Below, piece by piece: positions 24,654 through 59,574 of a DNA stretch of 64,000 bases; position 1 is the first letter of the stretch; each line of letters begins with the position of its first letter. The stretch is from positions 38,881 through 102,880 of the forward strand of contig WTFV01000004.1 in the NCBI GenBank assembly GCA_011523845.1, written 5' to 3'. The DNA is from Acidobacteriota bacterium (lineage in GTDB: Bacteria > Acidobacteriota > Vicinamibacteria > Vicinamibacterales > UBA8438). The notes below the pieces were generated by a model. The model searched no databases. It was not told where the DNA came from and saw only the letters and a list, made by a program, of their open reading frames with translations. The translations under genes were made by a program, and so were the position numbers.

Positions 24654-25820
24654 TCACCCGAAGCAGTAGAGCACGCCGTCCTGCGAGCCGATCACCACCT
24701 TGCCGTCGGCGATCGCGGGGGACGCCGACAGCGGGGCGCCGGTGTCGAACTCCCACAGCTTCTCGCCGCTGTCGAGGTCGAGGATGTAGAACCGCCCGTC
24801 GCCCGAGCCGATGTAGACCCGGCCGTTGGCGGCGGCGGGGGACGAATCCACCCGCGCGCGGGTCATGAACGTCCAGCGCATCTCCCCGGTCTCGGCGTCG
24901 ATGCCGTGGACCATGCGGTCGCGGCCGCCGATGACGACCGTGCCGTCGACGTTGAGCGCCGACGAGTAGAACGGGAAGTGCCGCCGCGGGTGCTCGTAGC
25001 GCCAGAGGATATCGCCGGTTCCCAGGTCGAGGCTGACGACCTCGTTGTCGAACGTGCCGAAGTAGGCGCGGCCGTCGCGGATGGCCGACGACGCGGCGGT
25101 GTAGGCGCCGGCCGGCACGCTGGTGATCTCCTCGCCGTCCGAGATGCGGACCCCGTGGAACGTCTCGTCGCAGCCTCCGAAGTAGGCGATGCCCTCGGTG
25201 ACGGCCGGCGTCGCGTGGACGTAGTTCTGGGTCTCGGCCTGCCACTGCAGCTCGCCGGTCGCCGCGTCCAGCCCGTACAGGTAGCCGTCGTACGACCCGA
25301 TCAGCACACGGTCCCCGGACAGCACCGGTGACGACTTGATCTCGCCCTGCGTGGCGTAGGTCCAGACCTCCTCGCCGGTCTCCGCGTCGACGGCGTGCAG
25401 CACGCCGGCCAGGTCGCCGATGTAGACCAGCCCGTTCCCGACGGCCGGCGACGACTCGCCGATGCCCATCCGCTCGCTTGCCCGATAGCGCCACTTCGGA
25501 TCGCCGGTCTCGAGATCGAGCGCAACGAGTTCGCCGGTGTAGGTGCCGACGTAGACCGTCCCGTTGACGATGGCGGCCGACGAGTCGATCGACTCGCCCG
25601 CCTCGAACGACCAGAGCAGCCGCGGATTCTCCGGCACGGTTGCCGACGAGACGCCGGTCAGGCCGGCCGTGCCGCGGAACTGCGTCCAGGCGTCCGGCGG
25701 CGCCGCGTCCTGGGCTGCTGCCGCCCCGGCGCCGGCCAGCGCTACCGAGGCGACGAAGACAGCGGTTGCGGCGACCGTCGCCGCGAACGTCCTGGGGTGT
25801 GACTGACTCAGTAGGCGCAT
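24654..25820 (-). CDS. PQQ-like beta-propeller repeat protein (BamB-like)
   Basis: Start re-set to ATG 25820 (MRLLSQ..., signal peptide). Repeated G-x-L-x-ALD-x-x-TG-x-x-W blades: LVALDLETGDPKWRY, LHAVDAETGEEVWTY, LYGLDAATGELQWQA, VVSLDLGTGDILWRY, VHGIDAETGEMRWTF, FYILDLDSGEKLWEF. Confidence 0.85.
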   Translation of the reverse strand: MRLLSQSHPRTFAATVAATAVFVASVALAGAGAAAAQDAAPPDAWTQFRGTAGLTGVSSATVPENPRLLWSFEAGESIDSSAAIVNGTVYVGTYTGELVALDLETGDPKWRYRASERMGIGESSPAVGNGLVYIGDLAGVLHAVDAETGEEVWTYATQGEIKSSPVLSGDRVLIGSYDGYLYGLDAATGELQWQAETQNYVHATPAVTEGIAYFGGCDETFHGVRISDGEEITSVPAGAYTAASSAIRDGRAYFGTFDNEVVSLDLGTGDILWRYEHPRRHFPFYSSALNVDGTVVIGGRDRMVHGIDAETGEMRWTFMTRARVDSSPAAANGRVYIGSGDGRFYILDLDSGEKLWEFDTGAPLSASPAIADGKVVIGSQDGVLYCFG

Positions 25821-27666: not shown

Positions 27667-27687
27667 GCCGTCCGCTCCCTTTGCCCG

Positions 27688-28899
27688 TCAGAGGCCGCCG
27701 ACGATCTCGCGGGATCTGGACAGACGTGTCTTGACGTTCGCCGTGCTCGTGGTGTTGGAAGCTGCAGCTGCGGCGAACTCACGATCCTTCCTCAGCGCCC
27801 GCAGGCGGTCCAACGACAGCTCGCCGTCGACCCGGCGCCGCTCGGCGAAGGCTTGTTCGCAGACGGCCGTGAAGGCAGCCTCGTACAGCATTATGTTGAA
27901 ACGACTGTCGTGAGGGTTCCGGAAGGCGTCCTCGGGCAGGCTACGGCATGCGTCCAGAAAAGACCGGAACAGCCCCTTGAGGTAATCGTTCTGGTCGCTG
28001 TCGTGCGTCCTGCACTTCTTCGAGAAGCGGTTCAGGAACCTGAGCATCGACGGTGCGTACGTGTCGCCGTCCACGAGCATGGCGAAGCCGCGAAGGAGGA
28101 CCTCGACATCCTTGAGGTGGAGATCCGGCGGGGCACCGAGGAGCGCACGCCACCTCGATTCGGCATTCATGTCGTACAGCATGGTGTAGAAGCAGGAGTG
28201 GTACATGCTGGTACGGATCTCCTGGGGTCGGAGATTCATCCCGCCTGTGTTCAGTCGATTGAAGATCTCGAATATCGACGAGTCGTCGTCGGACGGCGAC
28301 ACCTGCTTCACGATGATGTTGCGGAGCGGACGCAGGTCGAACTGGGACTGGTACTCGCCGAGAGAATCGTAGTCGAAGCCGTCGAACCTGCTCGCCCGGT
28401 CGGAGAACCGTCCCGAAAGGTGCAGCTTGAATGGCCGAAAGTACTTGTCGTCGTTGAGCACGTCCTCCGGAATGTGTCCGAGGTCGTCGAAGACGGTCCG
28501 CAGTTCCCGGCGGCGTTCCTGGCGCGGGAACCGCCGCTTGATGAAGTAGTAGATGGACATCAGCCGCTGTTGGCCGTCGATGACGAGGAATCGGTTGCGG
28601 GATTCTTCGTACAGGAACAACTGCGGCACGGGCAGGCCGAGGATGAGCGACTCGATGAGCCTGGACGCGCGGGGAAGATCCCAGACGAAGTGTCTCTGAA
28701 ACCCGGGAATCCTGACGGCGCCCCGGTCGATGAAGCTGCCGAGCGTCACCAGGTTGAAGTCGTTCGGGGAGGCGGTGATGTCGTACTGGTCGATGTGGAT
28801 GCCGCCGTCGTCCTCGGCATCGTCCGCGAACCACGTGTTCGGCTGATTGTCCGTTTCCGGCTCCACCTTGTCGATGCTGTGTACATCCATCTTCTGCAT
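27688..28899 (-). CDS. DUF262 (ParB/Srx-fold, GmrSD N-terminal-like) protein
   Basis: 403 aa. IPGFQRHFVWDLPRASRLIESLILGLPVPQLFLYE...FLVIDGQQRLMSIYYF (DGQQR motif) and FEIFNRLNTGGMNLRPQEIR. No DUF1524/HNH domain. Confidence 0.85.
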   Translation of the reverse strand: MQKMDVHSIDKVEPETDNQPNTWFADDAEDDGGIHIDQYDITASPNDFNLVTLGSFIDRGAVRIPGFQRHFVWDLPRASRLIESLILGLPVPQLFLYEESRNRFLVIDGQQRLMSIYYFIKRRFPRQERRRELRTVFDDLGHIPEDVLNDDKYFRPFKLHLSGRFSDRASRFDGFDYDSLGEYQSQFDLRPLRNIIVKQVSPSDDDSSIFEIFNRLNTGGMNLRPQEIRTSMYHSCFYTMLYDMNAESRWRALLGAPPDLHLKDVEVLLRGFAMLVDGDTYAPSMLRFLNRFSKKCRTHDSDQNDYLKGLFRSFLDACRSLPEDAFRNPHDSRFNIMLYEAAFTAVCEQAFAERRRVDGELSLDRLRALRKDREFAAAAASNTTSTANVKTRLSRSREIVGGL

Positions 28900-28918
28900 T
28901 CCGCCCGCCGTCCGGGGT

Positions 28919-30606
28919 CGTGGAGGACTCTATCCATGGTACCGGAGATCGGTGGTCTCGACAGCAGCCAGTGCGCCGACCGCGAAGGTCCGCGGGTACA
29001 GCTTCTCGGAGTACCAGAGCTTCGCGAAGTACAGCCCGATCGGGGTGGTCCGGACGCGTCGTCCACCATCGGTGGCGTCGATCAACCAGCTCGCACCGCG
29101 AGCCAACGCCTCGTCGAGGCTGTGGACCGCGGCGGCCCGCGGCAACCGGCGATACGTCGCCAAGGCCGAGACCGCCAGCGCCGTCTCCTCGATGGACGGC
29201 GAAACGCCCGGGCCGCCGCCCCAGCCGCCGTCGCCACCTTGCGCGTCGACGAGCCAACGCGTTGCCCGCTGCTCGGACGCCGCGATCGTCTCGACGTCGG
29301 AAAGGACGGCGAGCCCCTCCAGCACCCGCGCCGTGCCGTAGACCGGGTTGACCTCGTCCGGGGCGCCCTGGTTCCCGAACCACAGGGGAATCCACGATCC
29401 ATCCGGTTGCTGCGCCCGCTCGAGAAACCGGACGGCGCGTCCGGCGGCGCGCTCGGTGCGGGTCCGGAGCGCGTCGGGCAGCGCGGGTCGCCAGACGGTC
29501 CAGGCCCGCAGCGTGTGGGCGGTCAGGTCGGGACTGCTGCGGTCGAACGGCAACGCGCCCCAGCCGCGGCAGAACGTCGGAATGCCGCCGTCGGCGTTCT
29601 GCAGGTCGAGGAGCCAGCGGATCCCGGCGCAGGCGGCGTCCAGATGCTCGGCGTCTTCAGCGCCGAGGGAGTGGAGAGCGAGCAGCGCTCCCGGGGTGTC
29701 GTCGGCGTCCGGCACGCCGCCGGGCAGGTCGGTCCAGGCCCAGCCGCCCGGGTCGGCGTCCGTGGAGGACTCTATCCATGGTACCGGAGATCGGTGGTCT
29801 CGACAGCAGCCAGTGCGCCGACCGCGAAGGTCCGCGGGTACAGCTTCTCGGAGTACCAGAGCTTCGCGAAGTACAGCCCGATCGGGGTGGTCCGGACGCG
29901 TCGTCCACCATCGGTGGCGTCGATCAACCAGCTCGCACCGCGAGCCAACGCCTCGTCGAGGCTGTGGACCGCGGCGGCCCGCGGCAACCGGCGATACGTC
30001 GCCAAGGCCGAGACCGCCAGCGCCGTCTCCTCGATGGACGGCGAAACGCCCGGGCCGCCGCCCCAGCCGCCGTCGCCACCTTGCGCGTCGACGAGCCAAC
30101 GCGTTGCCCGCTGCTCGGACGCCGCGATCGTCTCGACGTCGGAAAGGACGGCGAGCCCCTCCAGCACCCGCGCCGTGCCGTAGACCGGGTTGACCTCGTC
30201 CGGGGCGCCCTGGTTCCCGAACCACAGGGGAATCCACGATCCATCCGGTTGCTGCGCCCGCTCGAGAAACCGGACGGCGCGTCCGGCGGCGCGCTCGGTG
30301 CGGGTCCGGAGCGCGTCGGGCAGCGCGGGTCGCCAGACGGTCCAGGCCCGCAGCGTGTGGGCGGTCAGGTCGGGACTGCTGCGGTCGAACGGCAACGCGC
30401 CCCAGCCGCGGCAGAACGTCGGAATGCCGCCGTCGGCGTTCTGCAGGTCGAGGAGCCAGCGGATCCCGGCGCAGGCGGCGTCCAGATGCTCGGCGTCTTC
30501 AGCGCCGAGGGAGTGGAGAGCGAGCAGCGCTCCCGGGGTGTCGTCGGCGTCCGGCACGCCGCCGGGCAGGTCGGTCCAGGCCCAGCCGCCCGGGTCGGCG
30601 TCCGTG
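28919..30606. repeat. perfect tandem duplication, period 842 bp (copy 1 28919..29760, copy 2 29761..30602, plus shared cgtg 30603..30606)
   Basis: Line-by-line comparison shows 28919..29764 identical to 29761..30606, and I found no mismatch. The same 4 nt (cgtg) sits at the left end, the junction and the right end. Identical translated ORFs appear twice in the track (for example 29082..29402 = 29924..30244). Confidence 0.95.
28930..29764 (-). pseudogene. duplicated promoterless 3' fragment of the terpene cyclase gene (residues about 391-667)
   Basis: Encodes DADPGGWAWTDLPGGVPDADDTPG...AVETTDLRYHG*, identical to the C-terminus of 29772..31775. It has no start of its own. The period is 842 (not a multiple of 3), so it is out of frame with the intact copy. 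Confidence 0.8.
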
Positions 30607-31775
30607 TAGACATGCCGCTCGCGGTACTGCTGGTTGAGAAGCCAGCGGCTCAGGGCGGCACGATCGGCGGGCCGGACGAGGTCGTGCCAATCGGGCCGGC
30701 GCGCCAGCGCGTTCACGCTGAGGGTCGTGACCCAGGTGGCGAGGTTGGTGTCGATGGGCCAGCTCCCGTCGGCGCGCACCGAACGTTCCAGAAACGCCGC
30801 GCCGCGCTCCACCACGAGGTGCGCCGATTCCCCGGCGGCGACCAGGCTCATGACGACGAAGCTCGTCAGCGGCGTCGCCTCCAGGAAGCCGCCGCCGGAC
30901 GGCTGAATCGCTTCCAGCCGGCGCAGGGTACGGGCGCGTACCGCCCGTCGCAGAAGGCGGGCCGCCGGATTGCGAGAGGGTCGCTGCCGGTGGCGTGCCT
31001 GCCCGATGGCGATCAGGGCCGGCAGGGCGTAGCTGACCACCGGGAGCCGCAGCCAGCGGTACCAGGACGGCGGAACCGCGGCCAACTCGAACGGGAGCTG
31101 CGGAACGTGCCGCCAGCCGCTGCCGATGGTCCCGCTGCCGTCGCCCTGCCCACCCTGGTCGTCGCCGGCGCGGAAGCCGGTGCTTCCTTCCTTGCCGGCC
31201 CGGCCTCCTTTCGGCGAGTGACCGCCGCGTCGTGCCTCGGCGCCGCGCCCGTTGGCGTCCAGGAGACCCGCCAGCGCGAGCACGGTCAGAATAGGCACGG
31301 AGAACGTGCGGTCCTTGCCGTAGCGCCGGCTGATCGTGTCGGCGAGCGGCCGCGGTTCCAGGCTGCCGGCGGCGCGGCGCATCCAGTCGCGCACGCGATC
31401 GAGCGCCGCGACGCAGGGCGGGTCGTCCGTCCCGCCGATGGCAAGCGCCGCCCAGCAGAGGGCGGTGGTGCTGACATTGCTGGGACTGTCGGTGGTGTCG
31501 CCCCAACCGCCGTCCCCGTTCTGGGTCCGGGTCAGCCATCCGACGCCGCCGCTGACGAGGGCGCTGTGGGCGGCCGGTGGGCGATGACGGTCGACCAGCG
31601 TGAGCGCGATGACCGCGACGGCCGTGGACAAGGCCGACGACGACAGCTCTCCGGTCCAGTGGCCGTCCGCGGTGCGCGCGGCGAGCAGGCTGTCGGTCAG
31701 CCGGTCGAGCGTTGCACGCCACTCTGCACGGTCGGTCGGCGCCGACGCTGCCGGCGTCATGGCAGCGGCTCCCAC
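29772..31775 (-). CDS. class II terpene cyclase, squalene-hopene cyclase family
   Basis: 667 aa. DxDD-type acid motif (GVPDADDTPGALLAL). Multiple QW-like repeats (AQQPDGSWIPLWFG, TQNGDGGWG, AQGGDGGWGG, LQNADGGIPTF). N-terminal DGHWTGELSSSALSTAVAVIAL. Start 31775 or 31760. Confidence 0.85.
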   Translation of the reverse strand: MGAAAMTPAASAPTDRAEWRATLDRLTDSLLAARTADGHWTGELSSSALSTAVAVIALTLVDRHRPPAAHSALVSGGVGWLTRTQNGDGGWGDTTDSPSNVSTTALCWAALAIGGTDDPPCVAALDRVRDWMRRAAGSLEPRPLADTISRRYGKDRTFSVPILTVLALAGLLDANGRGAEARRGGHSPKGGRAGKEGSTGFRAGDDQGGQGDGSGTIGSGWRHVPQLPFELAAVPPSWYRWLRLPVVSYALPALIAIGQARHRQRPSRNPAARLLRRAVRARTLRRLEAIQPSGGGFLEATPLTSFVVMSLVAAGESAHLVVERGAAFLERSVRADGSWPIDTNLATWVTTLSVNALARRPDWHDLVRPADRAALSRWLLNQQYRERHVYTDADPGGWAWTDLPGGVPDADDTPGALLALHSLGAEDAEHLDAACAGIRWLLDLQNADGGIPTFCRGWGALPFDRSSPDLTAHTLRAWTVWRPALPDALRTRTERAAGRAVRFLERAQQPDGSWIPLWFGNQGAPDEVNPVYGTARVLEGLAVLSDVETIAASEQRATRWLVDAQGGDGGWGGGPGVSPSIEETALAVSALATYRRLPRAAAVHSLDEALARGASWLIDATDGGRRVRTTPIGLYFAKLWYSEKLYPRTFAVGALAAVETTDLRYHG

Positions 31776-31815
31776 CGCCGGGTTCCTGCGAGCCCGTGGT
31801 GCAGCCGCGCGTGAC

Positions 31816-31890
31816 AGCCCGTGGTGGAACCCCGCGTAGCACCGAGAGCGGCGAGGCGCCCCGACACCCGGTACCCGGCGTGAGGAGGGC
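31816..31890 (+). repeat. ~75-nt extragenic repeat element, copy A
   Basis: agcccgtggtggaaccccgcgtagcaccgagagcggcgaggcgccc... Its reverse complement matches 56715..56783: the 46-nt core has 2 mismatches, and the flanks align with one 9-nt indel. Located in the spacer between the PFTB-like gene and the cyclase gene. Confidence 0.85.
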
Positions 31891-31907
31891 GCATATTGGG
31901 CATATGC
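31891..31907. promoter_or_regulatory. AT-rich perfect palindrome GCATAT-N5-ATATGC upstream of the cyclase gene
   Basis: gcatat tgggc atatgc, about 115 nt upstream of the cyclase start, directly abutting repeat copy A. It is a conspicuous low-GC island in a GC-rich spacer. Confidence 0.35.
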
Positions 31908-32034
31908 AACCGACGAACAACGCGGTCAGGCGGGATGCATCGCCGCTCGAATGCGGCGGGGACTCTCGCCACGGGCCGGTAACGCCGATAGTGACCGGGC
32001 AGTCGCACGACAAGGCGCGACAGGGGCTGCACGC

Positions 32035-32913
32035 TCACAGGCTCAGGTGTCCCAGGGCGAGCAGGGCATAGAAGGTGTACTCGCAGTCCTGCACGTCGTC
32101 GCCCCAGCTCCCGTAGAAGCCGCCGGAGTTGGTCCAGAGGCTGTCGATGAAGTCGAGGCAGGGTTCCTTGATCGGTTCGAGCGGGGCATGCGCCCCGGCC
32201 AGCGCGTGCAGCGCCGTGGCGGTCGAGAGCAGATCGGGGAGCGGCGTCGACGGCGACGCGCAGAACCCGCCCGCCGGCGCGTGGCGAGCCCGGAGCCACT
32301 CGATCGCTTCACGATCCGCCGGCCGCGAAAGGCGTCGCTGGATCGTTACCGCCGCGGCGGTCGGCGGCGTCAGGCCCGCCGGTACGCCGGGCTGGTTGGC
32401 GTATCCGCCGTCCCCGGCGCGCAACGCGGCCAAGCAGTCCAGGAGCCGGGCGGGATCGTCGAGCGTCGCGCCCAGGTCCTCGTACGCCCCCAGGGCCAGA
32501 AAGCAGCCGTACGCGGTGCCGTGGCTCGCCCGGTCCGTCGGGCTGTAACCGCCGTCCGGTGTGCGGTAGGTTTCCAGCCGTTCCAGCAGCGGCTCCGCGG
32601 GCGCCTCGTCGGCGGAGCCGATGTCGGCCCAGCAGCGAGCGAGGCAGGCGGTGTGCACGAAATCCAGTGCGGTGGGGTCCTCGTGGCGTTCCAGATAACG
32701 CCGCACCTCGACGACCGGCAGGTCGCGCCGGAGAGCGGTGAGCGCCTCGAGGCCGAAGACGGTGTAATAGAGGTCGCTGGCGCCGTCGCGATCCTGGAAG
32801 CCGCCGTCGGGATTCAGCCGGGAGGAGAGAAAGCCCGCCGTCAGGTCTGCCGCGTCACCCAGCAACGTCGGCGACAGCCTGGCTACCTGCAGCATTTCGA
32901 GCCTCGAACTCAC
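32035..32913 (-). CDS. prenyltransferase / squalene-oxidase repeat (alpha-alpha toroid, PFTB-like) protein
   Basis: 292 aa with five repeats of the xDGGF/Y type: LNPDGGFQD, RTPDGGYSP, RAGDGGYAN, HAPAGGFCA, TNSGGFYGSWG. The start (32913 or 32895) overlaps the upstream gene end by 41-59 nt. Confidence 0.75.
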   Translation of the reverse strand: MSSRLEMLQVARLSPTLLGDAADLTAGFLSSRLNPDGGFQDRDGASDLYYTVFGLEALTALRRDLPVVEVRRYLERHEDPTALDFVHTACLARCWADIGSADEAPAEPLLERLETYRTPDGGYSPTDRASHGTAYGCFLALGAYEDLGATLDDPARLLDCLAALRAGDGGYANQPGVPAGLTPPTAAAVTIQRRLSRPADREAIEWLRARHAPAGGFCASPSTPLPDLLSTATALHALAGAHAPLEPIKEPCLDFIDSLWTNSGGFYGSWGDDVQDCEYTFYALLALGHLSL

Positions 32914-34600
32914 TGCACCAGCCCTGAATCTCGACGCTGAAGATCTTGCCGATGACCCGGCGGAGCAGCCCCTTGAGGCTGGGGTTGGTCAGGCCGGGCA
33001 GACAACGTATCGCTTCTTCCTTGTAGCCTTCCATCAGGCGCCGGCTGCGGTCCGCGGCGTCGAAGCGGGACAGCAGCTCGCGCACCTCGTCGGAGCGGCC
33101 GTCGAGCGCCGGCTCCCGGCGCCACGCCGCCTCCAGGGCGGCCCGCGCCTCCGGCTCCGACTTGGCCTGCTCGTAGCCTACGGCGAGCGGCAGCGACGGG
33201 CGGAGCGCGGCCACGTCGTCCGGGGCATCGGCGGACGGCTCGAAGTCGTCGAGGTCGTCCCGGATCTGGTAGGCGATGCCGAGCGCGTCACTGTATGCGC
33301 GCAGCTTCTCGAATACGTCCTCGCCGGCGCGGGCGCAGGCCGCTCCCAGCTCGAGCGCCACACCGAACGCGGGCGCGGTCTTCTGCCGGAAAATCTGCAG
33401 CACCTGCTGCGAGCTGAGGGGACGGGGACTGCGCGCCCAGGCCAGCTCCTCTCCCTGTCCGAGGCAGAGGGTGCGGTGGCCGCGGGCCGCAATCGCAGTC
33501 ATCCCGGCGCGGATCTCGGGCGCGAAATCGCTCTCCGCGAGCAACCGGTAGCCCTCGCCGACCAGGAAGTCACCGACGTTGAGCGCCGCGGGAATGCCGT
33601 GCGAGGCGTGCAGCGTGGGCTCGCCGTAGCGTCGCGCGTCGCCGTCCTCGATGTCGTCGTGGACCAGCGAGGCCTTGTGGAAGCACTCCACCGCGACGGC
33701 GACCTTGCGCAGCGCGTCCGGCGGCGCCGCGTGCGGATCGTCCTGCAGCGCGTGGTGCACGCAGACGGTGAGGAAGGGCCGCCAGCGCTTGCCCGCCCGG
33801 GTGAGCTCGGCCCGCGCCAGCGTCTCCGTCTCTCCTTCCGGCGGTCCGCCGAACAGCGTGTCGAGCGCCGCGGGCTCGAACCAGCTCTCGACGTCCCGCC
33901 GCAACGCGTCGAGATCGAGCCGGCGCGTCCGGTCGTCGCTCGTGGCGTGGATGAAGTCCCAGACCCACTCGACGTCGACCCCGGTGTCCTTGCAGTCGTC
34001 CTGCAGCAGCGGAATCGCCACGCCCGGAATCGCCGCCGCCTCCATGTAGGGGAAGGCCCGCTCCAGCACCGAGAGGCAGCTCACGCCGACGATCGCCTCG
34101 ATCTTGCCGGTCTGGATCAGCGCCATCACCAGCGCCGAGCCCTCGGCGACGAGCACCGCGTAGCCGAGCTTCTCCGCTTCTTCCTGCAGATCCTGGATCG
34201 TGCACAGGCCGCACTGCTTGCACAGCAGGCCGAACTCGTCGAACGGGGCGGGGCAGCGGTCCTCCACCCGCAGGCACTTGGGCAGCAGCAGCAGGCGCCG
34301 GTCGTAGGGGACGGCAGCCAGGTGCTCGCGCCACGTCTCGTTGCCGAGCAGCACGCCGACGTAGTCGACGTACTTCGGATCGATGCCGTGCCCGCGCACG
34401 ATCTCCTCGGACCGCGCCTGCAGCTCGTCCAGGACCAGCGGCGGCGTGATCTCGCTCTGCCGCGCCGCGACGTAGGCCTGAACCTGCCGCAGCATCACCT
34501 CGCGCTCCGACCGGGTCTGCGGAATGTTCTCCTGCGGCGGCCGCATGGCCACGGGCGGCACGGCGCGCGGGAGCGAAACGACCGGCAGTTGATAGCTCAC
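32855..34600 (-). CDS. fusion protein: N-terminal DUF116 (Cys-rich) domain + C-terminal polyprenyl diphosphate synthase
   Basis: 581 aa. N-terminal half LLLLPKCLRVEDRCPAPFDEFGLLCKQCGLCTIQDLQEEAEKLGY...VGVSC is DUF116-like. C-terminal half has both Asp-rich motifs: LVHDDIEDGDARRYG (DDxxD) and YQIRDDLDDF. Confidence 0.8.
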   Translation of the reverse strand: MSYQLPVVSLPRAVPPVAMRPPQENIPQTRSEREVMLRQVQAYVAARQSEITPPLVLDELQARSEEIVRGHGIDPKYVDYVGVLLGNETWREHLAAVPYDRRLLLLPKCLRVEDRCPAPFDEFGLLCKQCGLCTIQDLQEEAEKLGYAVLVAEGSALVMALIQTGKIEAIVGVSCLSVLERAFPYMEAAAIPGVAIPLLQDDCKDTGVDVEWVWDFIHATSDDRTRRLDLDALRRDVESWFEPAALDTLFGGPPEGETETLARAELTRAGKRWRPFLTVCVHHALQDDPHAAPPDALRKVAVAVECFHKASLVHDDIEDGDARRYGEPTLHASHGIPAALNVGDFLVGEGYRLLAESDFAPEIRAGMTAIAARGHRTLCLGQGEELAWARSPRPLSSQQVLQIFRQKTAPAFGVALELGAACARAGEDVFEKLRAYSDALGIAYQIRDDLDDFEPSADAPDDVAALRPSLPLAVGYEQAKSEPEARAALEAAWRREPALDGRSDEVRELLSRFDAADRSRRLMEGYKEEAIRCLPGLTNPSLKGLLRRVIGKIFSVEIQGWCSEFEARNAAGSQAVADVAG

Positions 34601-34771
34601 GGGAATCTCTTCCGTTGGTGTTCAGCGTTCTCGGTCGGTGACTCGCGCCGCCGGGTGCCAGTAGAAAGAACCCCGCCAGCGTCGTCTGCTTCGCGTACGA
34701 TTCTCACGGCGCAGACTCCTGGTGTGCCGCCCCGGAGACACACAACACAACTCGGTCCGCCCCGTGGTGAG

Positions 34772-34812
34772 GAATTCCTGGCGTCTCCGCCGTGTTGAGC
34801 GGCCAGGAATTC
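34772..34812. promoter_or_regulatory. 11-bp perfect inverted repeat (gaattcctggc / gccaggaattc) with 19-nt loop
   Basis: 34772-34782 pairs with 34802-34812. It lies 26 nt downstream of the radical-SAM stop (34838), inside the only sizeable spacer (237 nt) between the radical-SAM stop and the DUF116-polyprenyl synthase start. No U-tract follows on the transcribed strand. Confidence 0.4.
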
Positions 34813-34837
34813 TGCATCGAACTTGAGAGGCAGGACA

Positions 34838-36031
34838 CTAGCTGTAGGCTCCGAATCCGAAGAACCAGTGCTTCTTGGCGAAGGCGTAGGCCCAGTGTTC
34901 CTCCGGGATCTCGTTCCCCGGGTCGTACTGGCTGCTCCGCGGCGTGAGCTGCGCCAGCTCCGCGGACGCCGTCTGCCGCCGGGTCGTGTCCCTGGCGCCG
35001 TGGCGCTCGACGAGATCGCGGACGAGATCCGGCCGCTCCAGCACGATGCAGCCGCGCGTGGTCCGTGCCGCCGTCTCCCGAAAGTCCTTGAGGAACGATG
35101 AGCTCGTCATGGTCTCGTAGACGCTCGGCCGATCATAGACGGTTTCGGTCGCGAACTGGATGATCGGGCACGGCTCGATGTCGCCGTAGGGGCTGATGTG
35201 GTGGCTCACCCCGGTTGCCATCGGGCACAGCGCCTGCCCCTCGTCGTCCCAGTACGCGTCGACGATGGCGATGGGCAGCTTCGCGCGCATGCGGACGATG
35301 AACCGGCGCACGCGGAGCACCTCCTCGGGCGTCAGTGCGATCTCCGCCGTCGGCTTCGGGCCGACGACCCGGTAGGTGTGGAACCAGGCGTAGTGCACGC
35401 CCATGTCGATGAGCCGCCGCAGCCACGACTCCTGCACGAGGTCGTCGATGTTCGTCTTGCAGACGCTGGTGGCCACGCCGGTGACCAGACGGTTCCGGGT
35501 GCATGCCTCGAGTCCCGCCAGCGACTTGTCGAGAACGGCGGTCCGGCCGCGGCGCTCGTCGCTCACCACCGAGGTGCCCTCGATGCTGACCAGCGGCGTG
35601 ACGTTGCCGAGCCGGCGCAGCTCGGCCGCCCGCGCGTCGTCGATGAGATGCCCGTTGGTGAAGAGCTGGAAGTAGCAGTCCGGGTGCGCGGCGAACAGGT
35701 CGAACAGCTCGGGGTGCAGCAGCGGCTCGCCCCCCAGGATGCCGAAGTAGCTGTTGCCGTGCCGCTTGGCGTCGCCGACGATGCGGTTCAGCTCGTCGAT
35801 CTCGATCTTCCGGCTCGGCGCCTCGACGTCGACCCAGCAGCCCTGGCAGCGCAACTGGCAGCCCGAGATCACCGAGATGAACAGGAACGGGGGGAAGTGC
35901 TCGCCCCGCTTGATCCGCTGCTTGTAGAGCTGCACCGAGCGGACGCCCTTGACGCCCATGTTCCAGACCAGCTTGCGCAGCGCGCGCGGGTCCGGCTCGG
36001 TGAGCATCCGTCTGGCCAGTCCGAGCACCAC
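34838..36031 (-). CDS. radical SAM protein
   Basis: 397 aa (GTG 36031 or ATG 36007). FLFISVISGCQLRCQGCWV gives the CX3CX2C cluster motif. Then GILGGEPLL, and C-terminal Cys residues (CPMATG...IEPCP). The N-terminal layout resembles HpnH/MoaA-like enzymes, but the subfamily was not identified. Confidence 0.8.
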   Translation of the reverse strand: MVLGLARRMLTEPDPRALRKLVWNMGVKGVRSVQLYKQRIKRGEHFPPFLFISVISGCQLRCQGCWVDVEAPSRKIEIDELNRIVGDAKRHGNSYFGILGGEPLLHPELFDLFAAHPDCYFQLFTNGHLIDDARAAELRRLGNVTPLVSIEGTSVVSDERRGRTAVLDKSLAGLEACTRNRLVTGVATSVCKTNIDDLVQESWLRRLIDMGVHYAWFHTYRVVGPKPTAEIALTPEEVLRVRRFIVRMRAKLPIAIVDAYWDDEGQALCPMATGVSHHISPYGDIEPCPIIQFATETVYDRPSVYETMTSSSFLKDFRETAARTTRGCIVLERPDLVRDLVERHGARDTTRRQTASAELAQLTPRSSQYDPGNEIPEEHWAYAFAKKHWFFGFGAYS

Positions 36032-36035
36032 GTCG

Positions 36036-36917
36036 TCAGCCCTCCTGCCGCGCCGCGGCGGCGTCGACGGCGGCCTGGGCCCGCGCCTTGGCCGCCTCGG
36101 CCTTGGCCTGGATGTCGTCGAGGCTCGGCAGGCTCGCCAGCACCTCGGCCGGAATGTCCAGGTTCTTCTGCAGCTTCACCAGGCACTTCTGGCGTTCCTT
36201 GAGTGCCCGTTCCTCGTCGCGCTCCTTCGAGAAGCGCGACTTCGCCTTCGCGCTCCGGTCGCGCAACGCGGCGTAGATGTCGCCGCCGAGCAGGGCCGAG
36301 ATGTCGACCTTCATCGCCTCGCGGCGCATGTCCTCGGCCTGGATCTCGCCGCCGTGGATCGGTCCGTGGCGGTACTTGGGAAACAGGATCGCGACCTCCG
36401 GGCAGACCCGCGAGCACGCCGGGCAGTCGGTCTTGCAGTTGTCGTGGTTCTGGACCTGTATCTGCCCCCCCTTCGATACGCCGTAGACGTCGAAGAGGCA
36501 GAAGCTCAGGCACTGCATGCAGTTGGTGCAGCGGTCGAAGTCGATGACCGGGAACCACGGCTTCCACTTGCCCGGCTCGCGGACCTCGGAGTCTGCGCGG
36601 ATGGCGTCCACCAGCGCCGCCACCGCGTCCGGCGTCTCGTCGCCGATGTCGCGGAACCAGACCCGGCCCCCGGAATCGGACGCAACCGCCTCGGCCGGCT
36701 GGCGCTCCGTGAAGCGGCCGAGCACCGCCAGCGCGTCGCCGTCGTCCGCCTGCGCGGCGGTCGGGCCGCCCGATCGCACCCGCGTCACCCGGTAACCCTT
36801 GTCGAGCAGCGTCTGCATCAGGGCGAACCGGCGCGTTCCGTCCAGCGGCTCGGCGCCGCGCCCTTCGTACAGCGCCACCCGCAGCACGGGCAGGGACAAG
36901 TTGCCGGCACCGCTCAT
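36036..36917 (-). CDS. 4Fe-4S dicluster ferredoxin-domain protein with Lys/Glu/Ala-rich C-terminal tail
   Basis: 293 aa. IDFDRCTNCMQCLSFCLFDVY and DNCKTDCPACSRVCPE (two Cys clusters). ATGA overlap with the upstream gene. Ends 4 nt before the radical SAM start. Confidence 0.75.
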   Translation of the reverse strand: MSGAGNLSLPVLRVALYEGRGAEPLDGTRRFALMQTLLDKGYRVTRVRSGGPTAAQADDGDALAVLGRFTERQPAEAVASDSGGRVWFRDIGDETPDAVAALVDAIRADSEVREPGKWKPWFPVIDFDRCTNCMQCLSFCLFDVYGVSKGGQIQVQNHDNCKTDCPACSRVCPEVAILFPKYRHGPIHGGEIQAEDMRREAMKVDISALLGGDIYAALRDRSAKAKSRFSKERDEERALKERQKCLVKLQKNLDIPAEVLASLPSLDDIQAKAEAAKARAQAAVDAAAARQEG

Positions 36918-37372
36918 CGATTGCCTCCATCGCCGGTCGGCGCGTCACCGTTCGATGCCCCGCCGCTGTCGCCCGCGGCCGGCACGTCCGAGTCGCCGGC
37001 CGTCCCCGTGCCGTGGCCGTCGGGTGTCAGCATCGCCGCCGCCACTGCCTCGGCCGTTTCCTCCCGCATGTTGAGAATCGTGACCCGCTCCTTGTCGAGC
37101 GGCGTGCCGGCCGACGAGAACAGCCAGCGCACGGCCCGCGGGTAGCAGGCGGCGATGGTCACGTCCTTCGCGCCGGCTATCTCCTCGAGCCGCGGATCCC
37201 TCCGGGCCGACATCTCGCACAGGTCCGGAACGGCGTCGAAGTCGACGCCGGAGCCCGCCAGCGTCTCCAGCACGCCGTCCTTCACCTTGCGCGGCACGAC
37301 CCGCGCGTAGGCGCAACGGCAGTAGACCAGGCCGGGAGACGCCCCCGTCGTCGGTTTCTCGGTCTCGCTCAT
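36914..37372 (-). CDS. hypothetical Cys-containing protein
   Basis: Start re-set to ATG 37372. MSETEKPTTGASPGLVYCRCAYARVVP...DLCEMSARRDPRLEEI...IAACYPRAVRWLF, then a Gly/Asp/Ala-rich tail. Translationally coupled on both sides (TGATG, ATGA). No family recognised. Confidence 0.5.
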   Translation of the reverse strand: MSETEKPTTGASPGLVYCRCAYARVVPRKVKDGVLETLAGSGVDFDAVPDLCEMSARRDPRLEEIAGAKDVTIAACYPRAVRWLFSSAGTPLDKERVTILNMREETAEAVAAAMLTPDGHGTGTAGDSDVPAAGDSGGASNGDAPTGDGGNR

Positions 37373-38520
37373 CACGCCGTCGCCATGCGCCAGGTCGGGG
37401 TCGGCTTGCCCGGCCGGAAGTGCTCGATGTGCTCGATCGCCGCCCGGCGGCCGGAACCGGCCGACTCCCACGCCGCGAGCGCCGCCAGCGCCGCGTCGTT
37501 GAGCCGCTCCGGGTCTTCCTCGGCCCGCAGGTTGACGATCAGCTCGCCGGCGTCGACCGGCGCGTTCAGCCTGTGCGCCAGCTCCGCGCCCCGGTCGCCG
37601 GCCACCAGATTCAGCACGGCAATGTCCGAGGACAGCTCCTCCGCCGTCAGCGTCATCTTCAGGTGGGCGATCTCCGCGGCGCCGACCGCGTCCGCCATGT
37701 GGGCGGCGAGGTCCCGCAGCAACGCGTTGCCGTCGAAAGGCGTGTCGCAGGAGACGTGCACCGTGGCGTTCAACCAGCCGAGCAGCGCCTCGCCCTCGGC
37801 GTACACCGCATAGTCTACGTCGGGCGACTTGCCGAGACCCATCGCGCCGCGCGTCGCCCGCTCGAACCAGGAACGCACTCCGCTTCCATCCCGGGCCGAC
37901 ATGGCCAGCACGTCGGCTCGCGGATAGCGCGCCGCCAGCGCTTCGCGCAGCCGCTCCAGGCGCGGCCCTTCGAGCAGGTCGACCTTGTTCACGACGATCA
38001 CGTCCGCCTCGGCGAGCTGCCGGTCGTAGACGTACAGCACCTTGCTCGAGAACGACCGGCCTGTTTCCAGTCCGAGCACCCGCAACGCGCGGAGCGGATC
38101 GACGAGCACGCTCAGCGGCGCGATCTCGAACGCATCGCCGTACATTCGGCGCAACGGATAGCTGACCGCGGCCCGCAGGTCGGTGCAGCTTCCCACCGGC
38201 TCGGCGATGAAGACGTCCGGCCGCGCCGCTTCGTTCAGGCGGTCCGCCGCATCCATCAGCGTGTTGAACCGGCAGCAGAAGCAGCCGCCCGTGATCTCCT
38301 CGACCGGGAATCCCTGCGAGCGCGCGAGGGTGGTGTCGACGAGGCCGACGCTCTGGTCGTTGGTGATCAGTCCGACCCGCCGGCCCCGCTCGGTGAGATG
38401 GCGCGCCAGCCGGATGATCGCCGTCGTCTTGCCCGCGCCGAGAAACCCGCCGACCATGACGTAGCGTGCCCGGGCGCCTTCCGACGGCGGCGTGCCGGGT
38501 TCAGGTTCGAGGCTAGGCAT
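37372..38520 (-). CDS. G3E-family P-loop GTPase (CobW/COG0523-like metallochaperone)
   Basis: 382 aa from ATG 38520. MVGGFLGAGKTT (Walker A), GGCFCCR (CxCC metal motif), VNKVDL (NKxD). Confidence 0.8.
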   Translation of the reverse strand: MPSLEPEPGTPPSEGARARYVMVGGFLGAGKTTAIIRLARHLTERGRRVGLITNDQSVGLVDTTLARSQGFPVEEITGGCFCCRFNTLMDAADRLNEAARPDVFIAEPVGSCTDLRAAVSYPLRRMYGDAFEIAPLSVLVDPLRALRVLGLETGRSFSSKVLYVYDRQLAEADVIVVNKVDLLEGPRLERLREALAARYPRADVLAMSARDGSGVRSWFERATRGAMGLGKSPDVDYAVYAEGEALLGWLNATVHVSCDTPFDGNALLRDLAAHMADAVGAAEIAHLKMTLTAEELSSDIAVLNLVAGDRGAELAHRLNAPVDAGELIVNLRAEEDPERLNDAALAALAAWESAGSGRRAAIEHIEHFRPGKPTPTWRMATA

Positions 38521-38986
38521 CCGTATCGCCCTCGCGGCGGCTCGCCAGCATCCGGTCGATGGTCGCGTCGAGCACGTGCACGTACTCGCCGACGTCGAGA
38601 CTCTCCGGATCCGGCGCTCCGTCCACCTTGTAGAGCCAGCCGTCGCCGTACGGCTTCGACTCGACCAGCGTGATGTCGGTGTCGAGGGCTTCGTTGGTCC
38701 CGGCAAAGCGGCCCGACGCGACCGCGTAGATGTCGGAGATTGCCTTGAAGCCCTCGATCGAGCCGATGGGCTGGCCGAGATCCACCGGCTCGCCCGGCTC
38801 CACCGCAAACGTGCATTCTACTAGGTCCCCCAGCATGCGGGTGGCGAAGGTGGTCAACCCGACACGCCAGCTCCCGGAGTCGTCGCGGTCCAGCCAGTAG
38901 TGCGACCGCGTGTAGCGATGGCGGACCGGCAGGCGCGTCGCGAACCGTGACCGCTTGTAGCGGAGGAGCTCGGGCGGCGTCGTCAT
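38513..38986 (-). CDS. GcvH-family lipoyl-carrier-like protein with N-terminal extension
   Basis: 157 aa from ATG 38986. YTRSHYWLDRDDSGSWRVGLTTFATRMLGDLVECTF...IGSIEGFKAISDIYAVASGRF...ESKPYGDGWLYKV aligns with E. coli GcvH (YSKEHEWL...VAESVKAASDIYAPVSGEI...EPYAGGWIFKI), including the lipoyl-Lys position. Confidence 0.8.
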   Translation of the reverse strand: MTTPPELLRYKRSRFATRLPVRHRYTRSHYWLDRDDSGSWRVGLTTFATRMLGDLVECTFAVEPGEPVDLGQPIGSIEGFKAISDIYAVASGRFAGTNEALDTDITLVESKPYGDGWLYKVDGAPDPESLDVGEYVHVLDATIDRMLASRREGDTDA

Positions 38987-40158
38987 GATGACCGCGGCGC
39001 TTCGGGGACGGCGCCGGCGAGCAGCGCGGCGGTCATCGCCTCGATGTCCGGCTCCCGGGAGAGATGACACCAGGACAGCCGCACGGCGCCGGCTTCCTCC
39101 TCGGGAGACAGGCCCATCGCGGCGAGCACGTGGCTGCAGGCATAGGATTGCGAAGTGCAGGCGGCGCCGTCGGAGATGGCGACCAGCCCCGCCCAGGCGT
39201 CGATGAGCGCCTCCTTCTCCCAGCCCGGAATCGAGAGGTTGAGGATGTACGGCAACCGGCGATCGGCGTCGCCGTGCACCCGCGGTGCGAGCGGCGCCAG
39301 TCCCGTCAGGAGGCGCTGCTCGAACGCACGCGCTGCCGCGAGCCGGGCGTCGTGCTCGTCGAGAGCCAGCTCGGCCGCGGTGCCGAAGGCCGCAATCAGG
39401 GGGACCGGCAGCGTGCCGGGTCGCAGCCCCAGCTCCTGTCCGCCGCCGTGGAGCAGGGGCGTCAGCGGGGGGCGCGCGCCGTCCCGATGCCGGACGAGCA
39501 GGGCGCCGGCGCCCTTGGGTCCGCAGATCTTGTGGCCGCTGACGCTGGCCAGATCGACCCGGCGGTGGCGGGGGGCGTCGAACGCCTTGCCGAAACCCTG
39601 TGCGGCGTCCACGTGCAGGAAGGCCGGCGACCCGGCGAGCCGGTCGGCGATCTCCACGATCGGTTGCTGGATGCCGGTCTCGTTGTTGACCTGCATCACC
39701 GAGACGAGCAGCGTGTCCGGCCGCACCGCGGCGGCCACGCGGTCGGCGTCGACCCAGCCGCCCGGCTCCGGATCCACCAGGGTCAGGTCGAAGCCGCGCG
39801 AGGCGAGCATCCGCAGCGGCTCCAGCACCGCGTGATGCTCGATCGTCGTGCTGACGAGGTGCATGCGGCCTTCGGCTTTTCCGAAGCCTTCAAGGCCCAG
39901 GATCGCGAGGTTGTTCGACTCGGTGGCGCCGCTGGTGAACACGACCTCGTTGCGACGCACCCGGGCGACCCGGGCGACGCGGGCGCGGGCGCGCTCCACC
40001 GCCTGCCGCGCCGTTTGCCCATAGGCGTGCGTGCGGCTGCCCGCGTTGCCGAAGTCCACCTCGGCGAAGCGGCGGAGCGCCGCCTGCACCCGCGGATCGA
40101 GGGGGCAGGTCGCCGCGCAGTCCAGATACACTGGCCCGGAAGTTACAGGTGCCGGCAC
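38983..40158 (-). CDS. cysteine desulfurase (class V aminotransferase, NifS/IscS-like)
   Basis: 391 aa. FTSGATESNNLAI, HVDAAQ, SGHKICGPKGAGAL (PLP Lys), GAACTS (active-site Cys loop). ATGA overlap with the GcvH-like gene. Confidence 0.9.
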   Translation of the reverse strand: MPAPVTSGPVYLDCAATCPLDPRVQAALRRFAEVDFGNAGSRTHAYGQTARQAVERARARVARVARVRRNEVVFTSGATESNNLAILGLEGFGKAEGRMHLVSTTIEHHAVLEPLRMLASRGFDLTLVDPEPGGWVDADRVAAAVRPDTLLVSVMQVNNETGIQQPIVEIADRLAGSPAFLHVDAAQGFGKAFDAPRHRRVDLASVSGHKICGPKGAGALLVRHRDGARPPLTPLLHGGGQELGLRPGTLPVPLIAAFGTAAELALDEHDARLAAARAFEQRLLTGLAPLAPRVHGDADRRLPYILNLSIPGWEKEALIDAWAGLVAISDGAACTSQSYACSHVLAAMGLSPEEEAGAVRLSWCHLSREPDIEAMTAALLAGAVPEAPRSS

Positions 40159-40284
40159 GGTGGATCCGGATTGTACCTGGAACGCCGGTCGCCTCCGGCC
40201 GCCGCCGGTTGCGGGCGCCGTGTCGGGCGTCTCGCGACGTGCGAGCTGCCTCGGGCGGCAAGGTCTCGTCGTGAGCCTTTACCC

Positions 40285-40989
40285 ATGCAGGTCGAAGACC
40301 ACGGACTGGTTGCGCCCGAGCGCGGCCTCGGGCTCGAAATCGAGGCACTGCGGCGGCTGGAACGGGATGCGCGCCGGTGCGTGGATCCGCGAGCTGATTC
40401 GCACGACCGCAGGCAGAGAGCAGCGGGCGACGCTGCCGTGTCGTTCGCCGGCGAGCGGTTGCTCGTCTGGGAGTCGGTTCGGCCCGCCGTGGTATTGCCC
40501 CGGCACGGTGATCCCGACACGTGGGTACACGTGCAGGCGTGCGCCGCGCGGGAGGTTCCGTTGCTGTACCGGGAGTCGGGCGGCGGCGCCGTGGTCGTCG
40601 GCCCCGGATGCCTGAACTTCGCGCTCGTTCTGTCGCTCGACCGGCGCCCCGGGCTGGTCGACGTCGAGCTCAGCTACGACCGGTTGCTCTGCACGCTGGC
40701 CGGCGTCCTGGCCATCGACGGCATCGCGACCCGAGCGACCGACCTCGCCATCGCCGAGCGGAAGTTCGCCGGGCACGCGCAACGGAGGGTGCGAGGCGCC
40801 CTGCTCCATCACGGGGTGGTGCTCTACGACTTCGACCTCGGTCTGATCGACGCGCTGCTGCCGGAGCCCTCGCGCCGCCCGGCCTGGCGCGCGCATCGGA
40901 CCCACCGCGAATTCCTGACCACGGCGCCGCTGATGCGACACGAGATCGTTCGCTGTCTCGGACGGCTCCCGGCTGCGCTGGATGAATGA
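40285..40989 (+). CDS. lipoate-protein ligase / octanoyltransferase family protein (BPL_LplA_LipB catalytic domain only)
   Basis: ATG 40285 inside track ORF 39064..40989. YRESGGGAVVVGPGCLNFALVL and IAERKFAGHAQRRV (catalytic Lys motif of LplA-type enzymes). Divergent from the nifS-like gene, with a 126-nt spacer. Confidence 0.7.
   Translation: MQVEDHGLVAPERGLGLEIEALRRLERDARRCVDPRADSHDRRQRAAGDAAVSFAGERLLVWESVRPAVVLPRHGDPDTWVHVQACAAREVPLLYRESGGGAVVVGPGCLNFALVLSLDRRPGLVDVELSYDRLLCTLAGVLAIDGIATRATDLAIAERKFAGHAQRRVRGALLHHGVVLYDFDLGLIDALLPEPSRRPAWRAHRTHREFLTTAPLMRHEIVRCLGRLPAALDE

Positions 40990-56784: not shown

Positions 56785-59574
<2,790 letters not shown>

Follow-up and report, generated by a model that had tools for sequence, protein, structure and literature searches.

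A conserved gene cluster combining a DUF116-polyprenyl diphosphate synthase fusion and a DxDD terpene cyclase with iron-sulfur, radical SAM and lipoyl-carrier genes in Acidobacteriota and other phyla

Why should genes for a lipoyl carrier, a cysteine desulfurase and iron-sulfur (Fe-S) proteins lie in one run with genes for a polyprenyl diphosphate synthase and a terpene cyclase? The question is raised by a 64,000-nt stretch of an Acidobacteriota genome (assembly GCA_011523845.1, contig WTFV01000004.1, positions 38,881 to 102,880; hereafter the window), in which ten genes between positions 29772 and 40989 bring the two sets together. A sequence-only reading of the window knew of no described pathway that joins a lipoyl-type carrier to a polyprenyl synthase and cyclase, and proposed that the locus either (a) builds a carrier-bound, sulfur-containing or radical-modified isoprenoid or (b) uses a lipoylated carrier as a redox partner for terpenoid tailoring. 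We likewise found no such pathway, and no published description of the cluster, in the full-text literature searched, which left most subscription journals outside its reach. The explanation to which we give tentative preference is an uncharacterized, conserved isoprenoid pathway, probably for a membrane lipid, in which the lipoyl module provides Fe-S and radical support and is not a scaffold for the product.

Nine of the ten genes run consecutively on the minus strand from 40158 down to 29772. They encode, in this order, a NifS/IscS-type cysteine desulfurase (38983..40158), a GcvH-like lipoyl-carrier protein (38513..38986), a COG0523-type G3E GTPase resembling CobW (37372..38520), a small protein with four invariant cysteines, here called CysP (36914..37372), a 2x[4Fe-4S] ferredoxin (36036..36917), a SPASM/twitch-like radical S-adenosylmethionine (SAM) enzyme (34838..36031), a fusion of a DUF116 domain to a polyprenyl diphosphate synthase (DUF116-IDS; 32855..34600), a PFTB-like single alpha-alpha toroid (32035..32913) and a class II (DxDD) terpene cyclase (29772..31775). 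The tenth gene, for an LplA-like lipoate/octanoate-protein ligase (40285..40989, plus strand, with ATG 40285 as its most likely start), diverges from the desulfurase gene. This arrangement, as first read from the sequence, was borne out by third-codon-position G+C content, which in the ~70% G+C window gave nine consecutive minus-strand coding frames over 29772-40158, and by Pfam and NCBIfam profile hidden Markov model (HMM) searches, in which all earlier domain calls held. The same ten-gene order is found in independent third-party gene calls on an NCBI metagenome-assembled genome (MAG), and the nearest genomes to the window are Vicinamibacterales (Acidobacteriota) MAGs, with a fusion protein 96% identical. 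The junctions among the first six genes are as tight as had been claimed, with overlaps of 4 nt (NifS/GcvH), 8 nt (GcvH/CobW), 1 nt (CobW/CysP) and 4 nt (CysP/ferredoxin) and a 4-nt gap before the radical SAM gene. A 237-nt spacer then precedes the fusion gene, which overlaps the toroid gene by 59 nt, an overlap shared by most loci having both genes, and 259 nt separate the toroid and cyclase genes. None of the ten proteins reached a curated NCBIfam cut-off, and no transmembrane segment was detected in any of them.

Gene neighborhoods were compared from several anchors. With the fusion as anchor and one genome per species, at least 425 relatives were present among the 600 pattern-matched stretches listed; a second scan, overlapping the first set, gave at least 587 stretches encoding a fusion relative among the 600 matches listed. 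The fusion had been called unusual in itself, which these numbers contradict, and it was noted as early as 2015 in Pirellula staleyi (Psta_0175; PMC5898192). The ten window proteins were located by tblastn in the best 80 of the at least 425 fusion-anchored loci. Each of the ten genes is present in 15-16 of 16 Vicinamibacterales loci, and in other Acidobacteriota each core gene is found in 14-16 of 16 loci and NifS in 13 of 15. The ligase gene adjoins the cluster in 15 of 16 Vicinamibacterales and 11 of 15 other Acidobacteriota loci (26 of 31), and in no Planctomycetota or Verrucomicrobiota locus. Planctomycetota carry the genes from GcvH through the radical SAM enzyme in 7 of 7 loci, the toroid in 14 of 15 and the cyclase in 11 of 15, with NifS relocated behind the cyclase. 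A Haliangiales locus has all but the cyclase, and the full set occurs in single or few loci of Gemmatimonadales and Limnocylindria. Verrucomicrobiota loci are mostly fragmented, some retaining only the radical SAM and fusion genes; the fusion is present in Chthoniobacter flavus Ellin428 (L036). Three Vicinamibacterales loci (L135, L137, L144) hold a version of the cluster whose fusion protein is ~54% identical to that of the window, suggesting two divergent lineages, or paralogous copies, within this order.

The same association is recovered from the other end of the cluster. The GcvH-like subfamily is encoded in at least 547 species genomes, nearly always with a CobW-like gene directly downstream. 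Among the 66 GcvH-anchored loci with at least 6.5 kb of downstream sequence, which add Armatimonadota to the host range, the GTPase is found in 63, CysP in 61, the ferredoxin in 62, the radical SAM enzyme in 60, DUF116-IDS downstream in 60 and the toroid in 59. The DUF116 domain, searched against 1.84 billion representative proteins, has 872 relatives there, the top ones mostly fusions of 480-640 residues, down to 35% identity. Anchoring on these distant fusions yielded 77 further loci from Bacteroidota, Lentisphaerota, Desulfobacterales, Sedimentisphaerales, Anaerolineales, Limnocylindria and Gemmatimonadales and from more Planctomycetota and Verrucomicrobiota.

Could a lipoate/Fe-S housekeeping operon simply have come to lie beside an unrelated terpene operon? 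Within the window the two blocks are indeed parted by the 237-nt spacer, which contains a palindrome (34772..34812) with 16-nt arms at 34772-34787 and 34797-34812 that are 88% complementary. Likewise, one Vicinamibacterales contig (CBDCCY010000002.1; L016 and L172) has the cluster split between ferredoxin and radical SAM genes, the halves lying ~20 kb apart. The spacer and its inverted repeat, pointed out in the sequence-only reading, are real, but the gap between radical SAM and fusion genes has a median of 35 nt in relatives, the palindrome is absent from them, and a match to the spacer in close relatives is limited to the last ~50 nt, upstream of the synthase start. No T-run follows the palindrome, and no terminator-like site was found in the 237-nt spacer. 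Spacer and palindrome are particular to the window genome and not a conserved part of the system, of which the palindrome is no operon boundary. Whether the synthase or the GcvH-like gene serves as anchor, the two blocks are found next to each other in several phyla, independent occurrence of the blocks was not seen (60 of 66 GcvH loci carry the fusion), and the break in the window falls after the radical SAM gene, itself part of the universal terpene core. We consider chance neighborhood extremely improbable.

That core, as delimited by tblastn and family HMMs, is near-universal and comprises CysP, the ferredoxin, the radical SAM enzyme, DUF116-IDS, the toroid and the cyclase. Family HMMs at E 1e-3 found no GcvH, NifS or LplA in 13 Bacteroidota loci or in others from Lentisphaerota, Desulfobacterales, Sedimentisphaerales and Anaerolineales. 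Within these module-less lineages a G3E GTPase is encoded in two Bacteroidetes loci only (L120, L130), after the cyclase and without GcvH. Because the core stands alone in many lineages, we regard GcvH, the GTPase, NifS and LplA as an add-on, and the lipoyl carrier as more likely a support module than a product scaffold. Proposal (a) is weakened by the five lineages whose core does without GcvH, NifS and LplA, while proposal (b) is compatible with, and overlaps, the explanation we prefer.

What would the core make? The sequence-only identification of a DUF116-synthase fusion, a PFTB-like toroid and a DxDD cyclase was upheld by Pfam and by motif alignments. In the fusion (DUF116 5e-35, polyprenyl_synt 3e-40), the DUF116 domain (PF01976) scores 120.7 bits against a Pfam cut-off of 25, contains seven invariant cysteines and is a putative Fe-S domain. 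DUF116 has been predicted to be a metal-binding, flavodoxin-like electron-transfer domain, and N-terminal transmembrane helices have been described for its archaeal members (Makarova et al., PMC5898192); the DUF116-IDS of the window, unlike these, is without such helices. We found no sequence relatives of the DUF116 domain in the PDB and no additional Rosetta-stone fusions among long DUF116 proteins, and a large homologue search with the fusion returned generic names only. The synthase domain has the motifs of a trans-isoprenyl diphosphate synthase, in that both Asp-rich motifs and the isopentenyl diphosphate-binding residues are invariant (HDDIED, IRDDLxD, KT, RYG). Its PDB relatives, at E 1e-24, cover all chain lengths and do not fix that of the product. 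The residues before the first Asp-rich motif are Ala at -5 and Ser at -4. Small residues before the first DDxxD favor products above C15-C20, and the product is therefore probably longer than C20.

The cyclase (SQHop_cyclase_C 2.6e-38, SQHop_cyclase_N 5e-20) has the two-domain barrel and the DxDD motif of class II enzymes: its PDADDT aligns with PDVDDT of the squalene-hopene cyclase (SHC) of A. acidocaldarius (1gsz), and GGVPDADDT is invariant in 45 orthologues. Against the SHC equivalog TIGR01507 it scores 86.5 bits with a cut-off of 431, and it is remote from hopene cyclases. A source of squalene is not apparent either, as a scan of ~60 window open reading frames (ORFs) gave neither a SQS_PSY (squalene/phytoene synthase) nor an hpn-type domain, in agreement with what had been read from the sequence.

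The toroid (Prenyltrans 1.4e-11) is harder to place. Its family profile finds the beta subunit of RabGGTase as best match (1.5e-9), and it shares with RabGGTase/FTase beta subunits the repeat architecture and a similar size (292 versus ~330 aa). Asp227 is kept, while invariant Leu229 and Tyr279 occupy what we take to be the places of the Zn-binding Cys and His, from the ligand positions of the known enzymes and a repeat register read by eye. The position of the DxDD motif reads PDLLST, so that no DxDD is present. Unlike RabGGTase and FTase, the toroid comes without an alpha subunit: no gene for one was found among the conserved neighbors. Judged from these residues, the toroid would not qualify as a canonical thiol prenyltransferase or as a class II cyclase, and is probably a lipid-binding or otherwise non-canonical member of the prenyltransferase-beta family. 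Since its gene is translationally coupled to that of the synthase, we suppose that it binds the chain in partnership with the synthase, a role that is a guess. The idea of a Zn chaperone supplying a Zn prenyltransferase was rejected because the toroid misses the Cys and His ligands. The same features bear on whether the cluster lipidates a protein, with synthase and toroid prenylating either the GcvH-like protein or a beta-propeller encoded beside the cluster, and cyclase and radical SAM enzyme modifying the attached lipid. The best structural relatives of the toroid are protein prenyltransferase beta subunits, and the propeller is seemingly exported and recurs beside the cluster; against this stand the missing alpha subunit, the lost Zn-binding residues and the absence of the propeller from most Planctomycetota and Bryobacterales loci, and we consider protein lipidation very unlikely.

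The radical SAM enzyme of the window (Radical_SAM 1.6e-16) carries the CX3CX2C motif as CQLRCQGC, conserved cysteines in ALCP, EPCP and RGC, the cysteines beyond the motif lying in its central and C-terminal parts, and a conserved hydrophobic C-terminal tail. Its best PDB match is BlsE (3e-9) and its best NCBIfam matches are NirJ, AhbC and BlsE-like families, all far below cut-off; these best matches belong to the SPASM/twitch group, but no SPASM domain was called by Pfam. With 32.3 bits against a cut-off of 225 for TIGR03470 it falls far short of HpnH. LipA and LipS families are absent from the best 25 of 40 NCBIfam matches, and a large homologue search gave generic names only. In 11 loci from Acidobacteriota, Planctomycetota, Desulfobacterales, Sedimentisphaerales and Anaerolineales (L031, at 8389-9987, and L045, L083, L085, L101, L105, L110, L118, L125, L145 and L150), an unrelated radical SAM protein of ~520 residues fills the slot between ferredoxin and synthase. 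With these matches and the exchange in 11 loci, the analogy with sulfur-inserting enzymes that had been drawn for the window is not supported. The best NCBIfam match of the alternative enzyme is a B12-binding-domain/radical SAM family, and six orthologues share a single further invariant Cys outside CX3CX2C. A MiaB-type methylthiotransferase was considered for it and rejected, as its N-terminal domain is without the three-Cys cluster motif. Since one or the other of two unrelated enzymes invariably occupies the slot, the radical step appears integral to the pathway, and since the alternative type is without the three-Cys motif, that step probably needs no auxiliary cluster, as far as can be judged from sequence.

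Upstream of this slot lie the two genes that could supply electrons. CysP has no Pfam, NCBIfam or PDB sequence match; its family numbers 2485 homologous clusters, and a functional name or Pfam domain is attached to 0 of the 120 listed. An AlphaFold2 model with a core predicted local distance difference test (pLDDT) score >90 has a small flavodoxin-like alpha/beta fold, in which the invariant C18, C20, C52 and C76 are sited at strand ends. A Foldseek search of the PDB with this model returned nothing below E 1e-3 and generic flavodoxin/Rossmann folds above E 7e-3; at best, a weak match to HdrA (8rvu_A, E 0.05) hints at an Fe-S module of the MvhD kind. Besides its invariant CxxCxxCxxxC and CxxxCxxCxxxCP motifs, the ferredoxin (Fer4 family matches) has an N-terminal domain, and its C-terminal tail is conserved. 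The two proteins form a single reading frame in Bacteroidota, Lentisphaerota, Desulfobacterales, Sedimentisphaerales and Anaerolineales (L120, L130, L134, L138, L141, L142, L149, L152-L154 and L157, also L081, L084, L085, L105, L125 and others), and we regard them as functionally tied because of this fusion. Some Bacteroidota clusters also contain genes for a NuoE-NuoF-like fusion, a GltD-like oxidoreductase, a NapH-like polyferredoxin and a further ferredoxin; two such loci (L120, 1-8004; L138, 13998-21542) additionally encode an uncharacterized 335-aa protein and at least two beta-propellers.

Turning to the lipoyl module, the GcvH-like protein (GCV_H 81 bits, 6.4e-23) has the GcvH fold and an invariant lipoyl-lysine in IEGFKAISD, which aligns with the lysine of ESVKAASD in E. 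coli GcvH at 36% identity. It scores below the GcvH equivalogs (80.8 versus 115.85 bits for TIGR00527; 86.4 versus 117 for NF002270), and its gene has NifS upstream and CobW downstream, not gcvT or gcvP. The N-terminal extension that had been singled out as unusual is present and carries a conserved YxRxRF, but it is short, at ~17-25 residues. Scores and neighbors place the protein outside the glycine-cleavage clade and identify it, at the level of sequence, as a cluster-specific paralogue. The GTPase (cobW 83.8 bits, 1.4e-23) has an invariant Walker A motif GFLGAGKT and the CxCC motif GGCFCC of COG0523 G3E metallochaperones; no CobW_C domain was detected in it. For the NifS-like protein (Aminotran_5 1e-54), in which the pyridoxal phosphate-binding lysine and active-site Cys are conserved, the closest NCBIfam family is DndA (TIGR03235; 437 bits, cut-off 480). 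The LplA-like ligase (LplA-B_cat 4.5e-26) consists of the catalytic domain only, ~234 aa, with a conserved RKxxGxAQRR lysine motif and all NCBIfam scores below cut-off. Weak matches to a CobW-related selenoprotein family, TrsS and GcvH_rel_desulf suggested a link to selenium; this lead was dropped, as review literature gave nothing relevant.

The company of a carrier, its ligase and a desulfurase invites the reading in which the isoprenoid is itself carrier-bound or sulfur-containing: ligase or toroid would load the GcvH-like lysine or the lipoyl thiols, and NifS and the radical SAM enzyme would insert sulfur. All three genes share an operon with the synthase, the toroid resembles RabGGTase beta, which prenylates thiols, and SPASM/twitch radical SAM enzymes include thioether formers. 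It is difficult to reconcile with the many lineages whose core is without GcvH, NifS and LplA, with a ligase adjoining in Acidobacteriota only, and with a toroid devoid of the Zn ligands required for thiol prenylation; moreover, the alternative radical SAM enzyme has no obvious auxiliary cluster, and no LipA or LipS was among the NCBIfam matches shown. We rate it as improbable.

A related comparison had been made with sHdr-LbpA sulfur-oxidation loci, which reportedly contain a GcvH-like protein, sLpl(AB), LipS1/LipS2 and a reductase resembling geranylgeranyl reductase. The likeness holds in that, in both, a GcvH paralogue and a dedicated LplA-type ligase are encoded in the midst of Fe-S and radical SAM genes, away from glycine cleavage. 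It does not extend further: Pfam and NCBIfam matched no Hdr, DsrE or TusA domain in the cluster proteins, a single SPASM/twitch-like radical SAM enzyme stands in place of the LipS1/LipS2 pair, and the carrier keeps company with a COG0523 GTPase and isoprenoid enzymes.

Maturation of the H-cluster of [FeFe]-hydrogenase provides another parallel, as it is said to involve the radical SAM enzymes HydE and HydG, the GTPase HydF and the lipoyl-H-protein. As in the present cluster, an H-protein and a GTPase combine there with radical SAM chemistry and with mobilization of sulfur around Fe-S proteins. One could accordingly picture the GcvH-like protein, GTPase, NifS and radical SAM enzyme building a metallocofactor on DUF116 or CysP, which would then reduce a prenyl diphosphate. 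The parallel in gene content (GTPase, radical SAM, H-protein, sulfur donor), seven invariant DUF116 cysteines that exceed the need of one cubane cluster, and the G3E gene that joins the core without GcvH in two Bacteroidetes loci all point this way. Yet the radical SAM enzyme belongs to the universal core and GcvH and NifS lie outside it, the core doing without the H-protein module in many lineages; the GTPase is of COG0523 and not HydF type; and the cluster has neither a hydrogenase nor gcvT, gcvP or glyA to load a one-carbon unit. We regard cofactor maturation, too, as unlikely.

In the isoprenoid pathway that we prefer, the synthase domain would elongate an allylic diphosphate, probably past C20, the toroid would hold the hydrophobic chain, and the cyclase would protonate its terminal double bond and cyclize it with no involvement of squalene synthase. 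The ferredoxin/CysP pair may pass electrons to the radical SAM enzyme, perhaps also to a cluster in DUF116, and the radical SAM enzyme would perform radical C-H functionalization of the isoprenoid. The GcvH-like protein, GTPase and NifS, with the LplA-like ligase in Acidobacteriota, would be an add-on for the upkeep of these oxygen-sensitive Fe-S and radical enzymes: the ligase would lipoylate the carrier, whose dihydrolipoyl arm could give reducing equivalents, resolve the NifS persulfide or do both, and the GTPase would deliver metal. The catalytic motifs that such a scheme calls on are invariant, namely DxDD, DDIED/DDLxD, CX3CX2C, CxCC, the lipoyl, ligase and NifS lysines and the NifS Cys.

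Several points weigh against this scheme. All the chemical steps in it are inferred. The redox potential of lipoamide is too high for direct reduction of a radical SAM cluster, and the toroid, with neither Zn ligands nor DxDD, is assigned its part by guesswork. The AlphaFold2 model of the DUF116 domain (pLDDT 52) is unusable, and the NuoEF-, GltD- and NapH-like redox genes are absent from the Bacteroidota loci L149, L154 and L157. In five loci, mostly of Verrucomicrobiota (L202, L206, L215, L228, L236), the GcvH-like gene stands alone, usually with the GTPase gene and with nothing else of the cluster within 8 kb, and this tight GcvH-CobW pair may therefore serve a separate function. The putative link to oxygen, with aerobes prevailing among the lineages that have the GcvH module and anaerobes among those that lack it, rests on general traits of the taxa.

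How far does the cluster differ from known terpenoid systems? Like hopanoid (hpn) loci, it encodes an isoprenyl diphosphate synthase, a DxDD cyclase and a radical SAM enzyme, the cyclases belonging to one superfamily and the radical SAM enzymes to one broad subgroup; in both, the enzymes are soluble or peripheral and would work at the membrane. Those loci carry SHC, HpnCDE or Sqs, and HpnH, often with ispH and a polyprenyl synthase; here, a squalene synthase was not found in the scanned window ORFs and none stood out among the conserved neighbors in the loci clustered. Unlike them, the cluster includes the DUF116 fusion, the four-Cys protein, a ferredoxin of its own and the toroid, joined in some phyla by a lipoyl carrier. 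For a Bipolaricaulota isolate, a preprint figure (10.1101/2025.11.21.689855) shows DUF116 as a separate gene in the company of ispH, shc, hpnH and a polyprenyl synthase gene. Squalene-free pathways in which a polyprenyl synthase feeds a DxDD cyclase also have precedents in the C35 sesquarterpenes of Bacillus (HepST, YtpB, SqhC) and in class II diterpene synthases acting on geranylgeranyl diphosphate. The cluster departs from these in having no class I terpene synthase, in its obligatory radical SAM and Fe-S partners, and in a synthase that is fused to DUF116 and translationally coupled to a RabGGTase-beta-like toroid.

The unit described by the sequence-only reading contains the ten genes as stated, but it probably reaches further, to a gene for a BamB/PQQ_2-type beta-propeller (24654..25820, minus strand; PQQ_2 1e-58). 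The N-terminal hydrophobic stretch of this protein, read by eye, resembles a Sec signal peptide. Beta-propellers recur beside the cluster in Bacteroidota, Desulfobacterales, Gemmatimonadales, Vicinamibacterales, one Verrucomicrobiota locus and one unclassified locus (L081), and that of the window aligns along most of its length, at 35-36% identity (E 1e-75 to 1e-83), with the directly flanking propellers of a Gemmatimonadales locus (L116, 7370-8494) and a Bacteroidetes locus (L120, 6886-8004). In locus L001 the propeller gene is next after the cyclase, with a short called ORF between. Within the window, a GmrSD-like (DUF262) and RiboL-PSP HEPN pair (27124-28929, minus strand) lies between cyclase and propeller; it is defense-like, its stretch is slightly lower in G+C, and it looks inserted because it is present in locus L002 and absent from L001. 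The seemingly exported beta-propeller is probably an accessory member of the cluster that was displaced in the window by this gene pair. A GT4 glycosyltransferase gene follows the GTPase gene in L120, and a homologue that clusters with it follows the propeller in L116.

Beyond the propeller, Vicinamibacterales have genes for a HemN-like radical SAM protein (window 22140-23696), an FAD oxidoreductase of the geranylgeranyl-reductase/halogenase type (20003-21880) and a PaaK-like AMP ligase (17901-19871), all on the minus strand; the first two are also found near the cluster in a Planctomycetota locus (L117). The HemN-like protein was considered as a member of the alternative radical SAM type and rejected, being unrelated to it. 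Elsewhere in the window, a HAMP-SpoIIE phosphatase, two HATPase_c_2 anti-sigma-type kinases and a STAS protein (5310-9803, plus strand) form what looks like an ordinary partner-switching module, and a PP-binding, AMP-binding and acyltransferase protein resembling Aas (56785-59679, minus strand) is unrelated to the cluster.

Taken together, the locus is a terpenoid cluster assembled from known superfamilies and set apart from others of its kind by a non-canonical toroid, a DUF116 fusion, a module of lipoyl carrier and G3E GTPase, and partners from Fe-S and radical chemistry that are obligatory, and there is a fair chance that it is something more distinct than a variant terpenoid cluster. The fusion protein is at least 60% identical across phyla and the radical SAM enzyme 73-96% identical to the 120 best homologues listed (mainly Acidobacteriota), which argues for strong selection on a function not yet assigned. 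The most far-reaching version, which we consider rather unlikely, is a squalene-independent radical/Fe-S route to new cyclic polyprenoids in which the lipoylated H-protein paralogue and G3E GTPase are obligatory and hitherto unrecognized partners of terpenoid biosynthesis in aerobes. If it were true, the producers would be abundant soil, freshwater and sediment Acidobacteriota, Planctomycetota and Verrucomicrobiota together with anaerobic Bacteroidota, and orphan polyprenoid biomarkers of sediments, such as tricyclic terpanes, for which we know of no established biological origin, might derive from the new lipids. The fusion is encoded in hundreds of species-level genomes per scan, with hosts among the most abundant uncultured soil bacteria, and the question is directly testable because it also occurs in cultured Pirellula staleyi and in Chthoniobacter flavus Ellin428. 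Should the product be a cyclic isoprenoid lipid, it would open a new branch of bacterial membrane-lipid and biomarker biology, give a first function to DUF116 and to a Pfam-less four-Cys family of ~2,500 sequence clusters, and extend lipoylated H-protein paralogues and COG0523 GTPases to roles in terpenoid metabolism.

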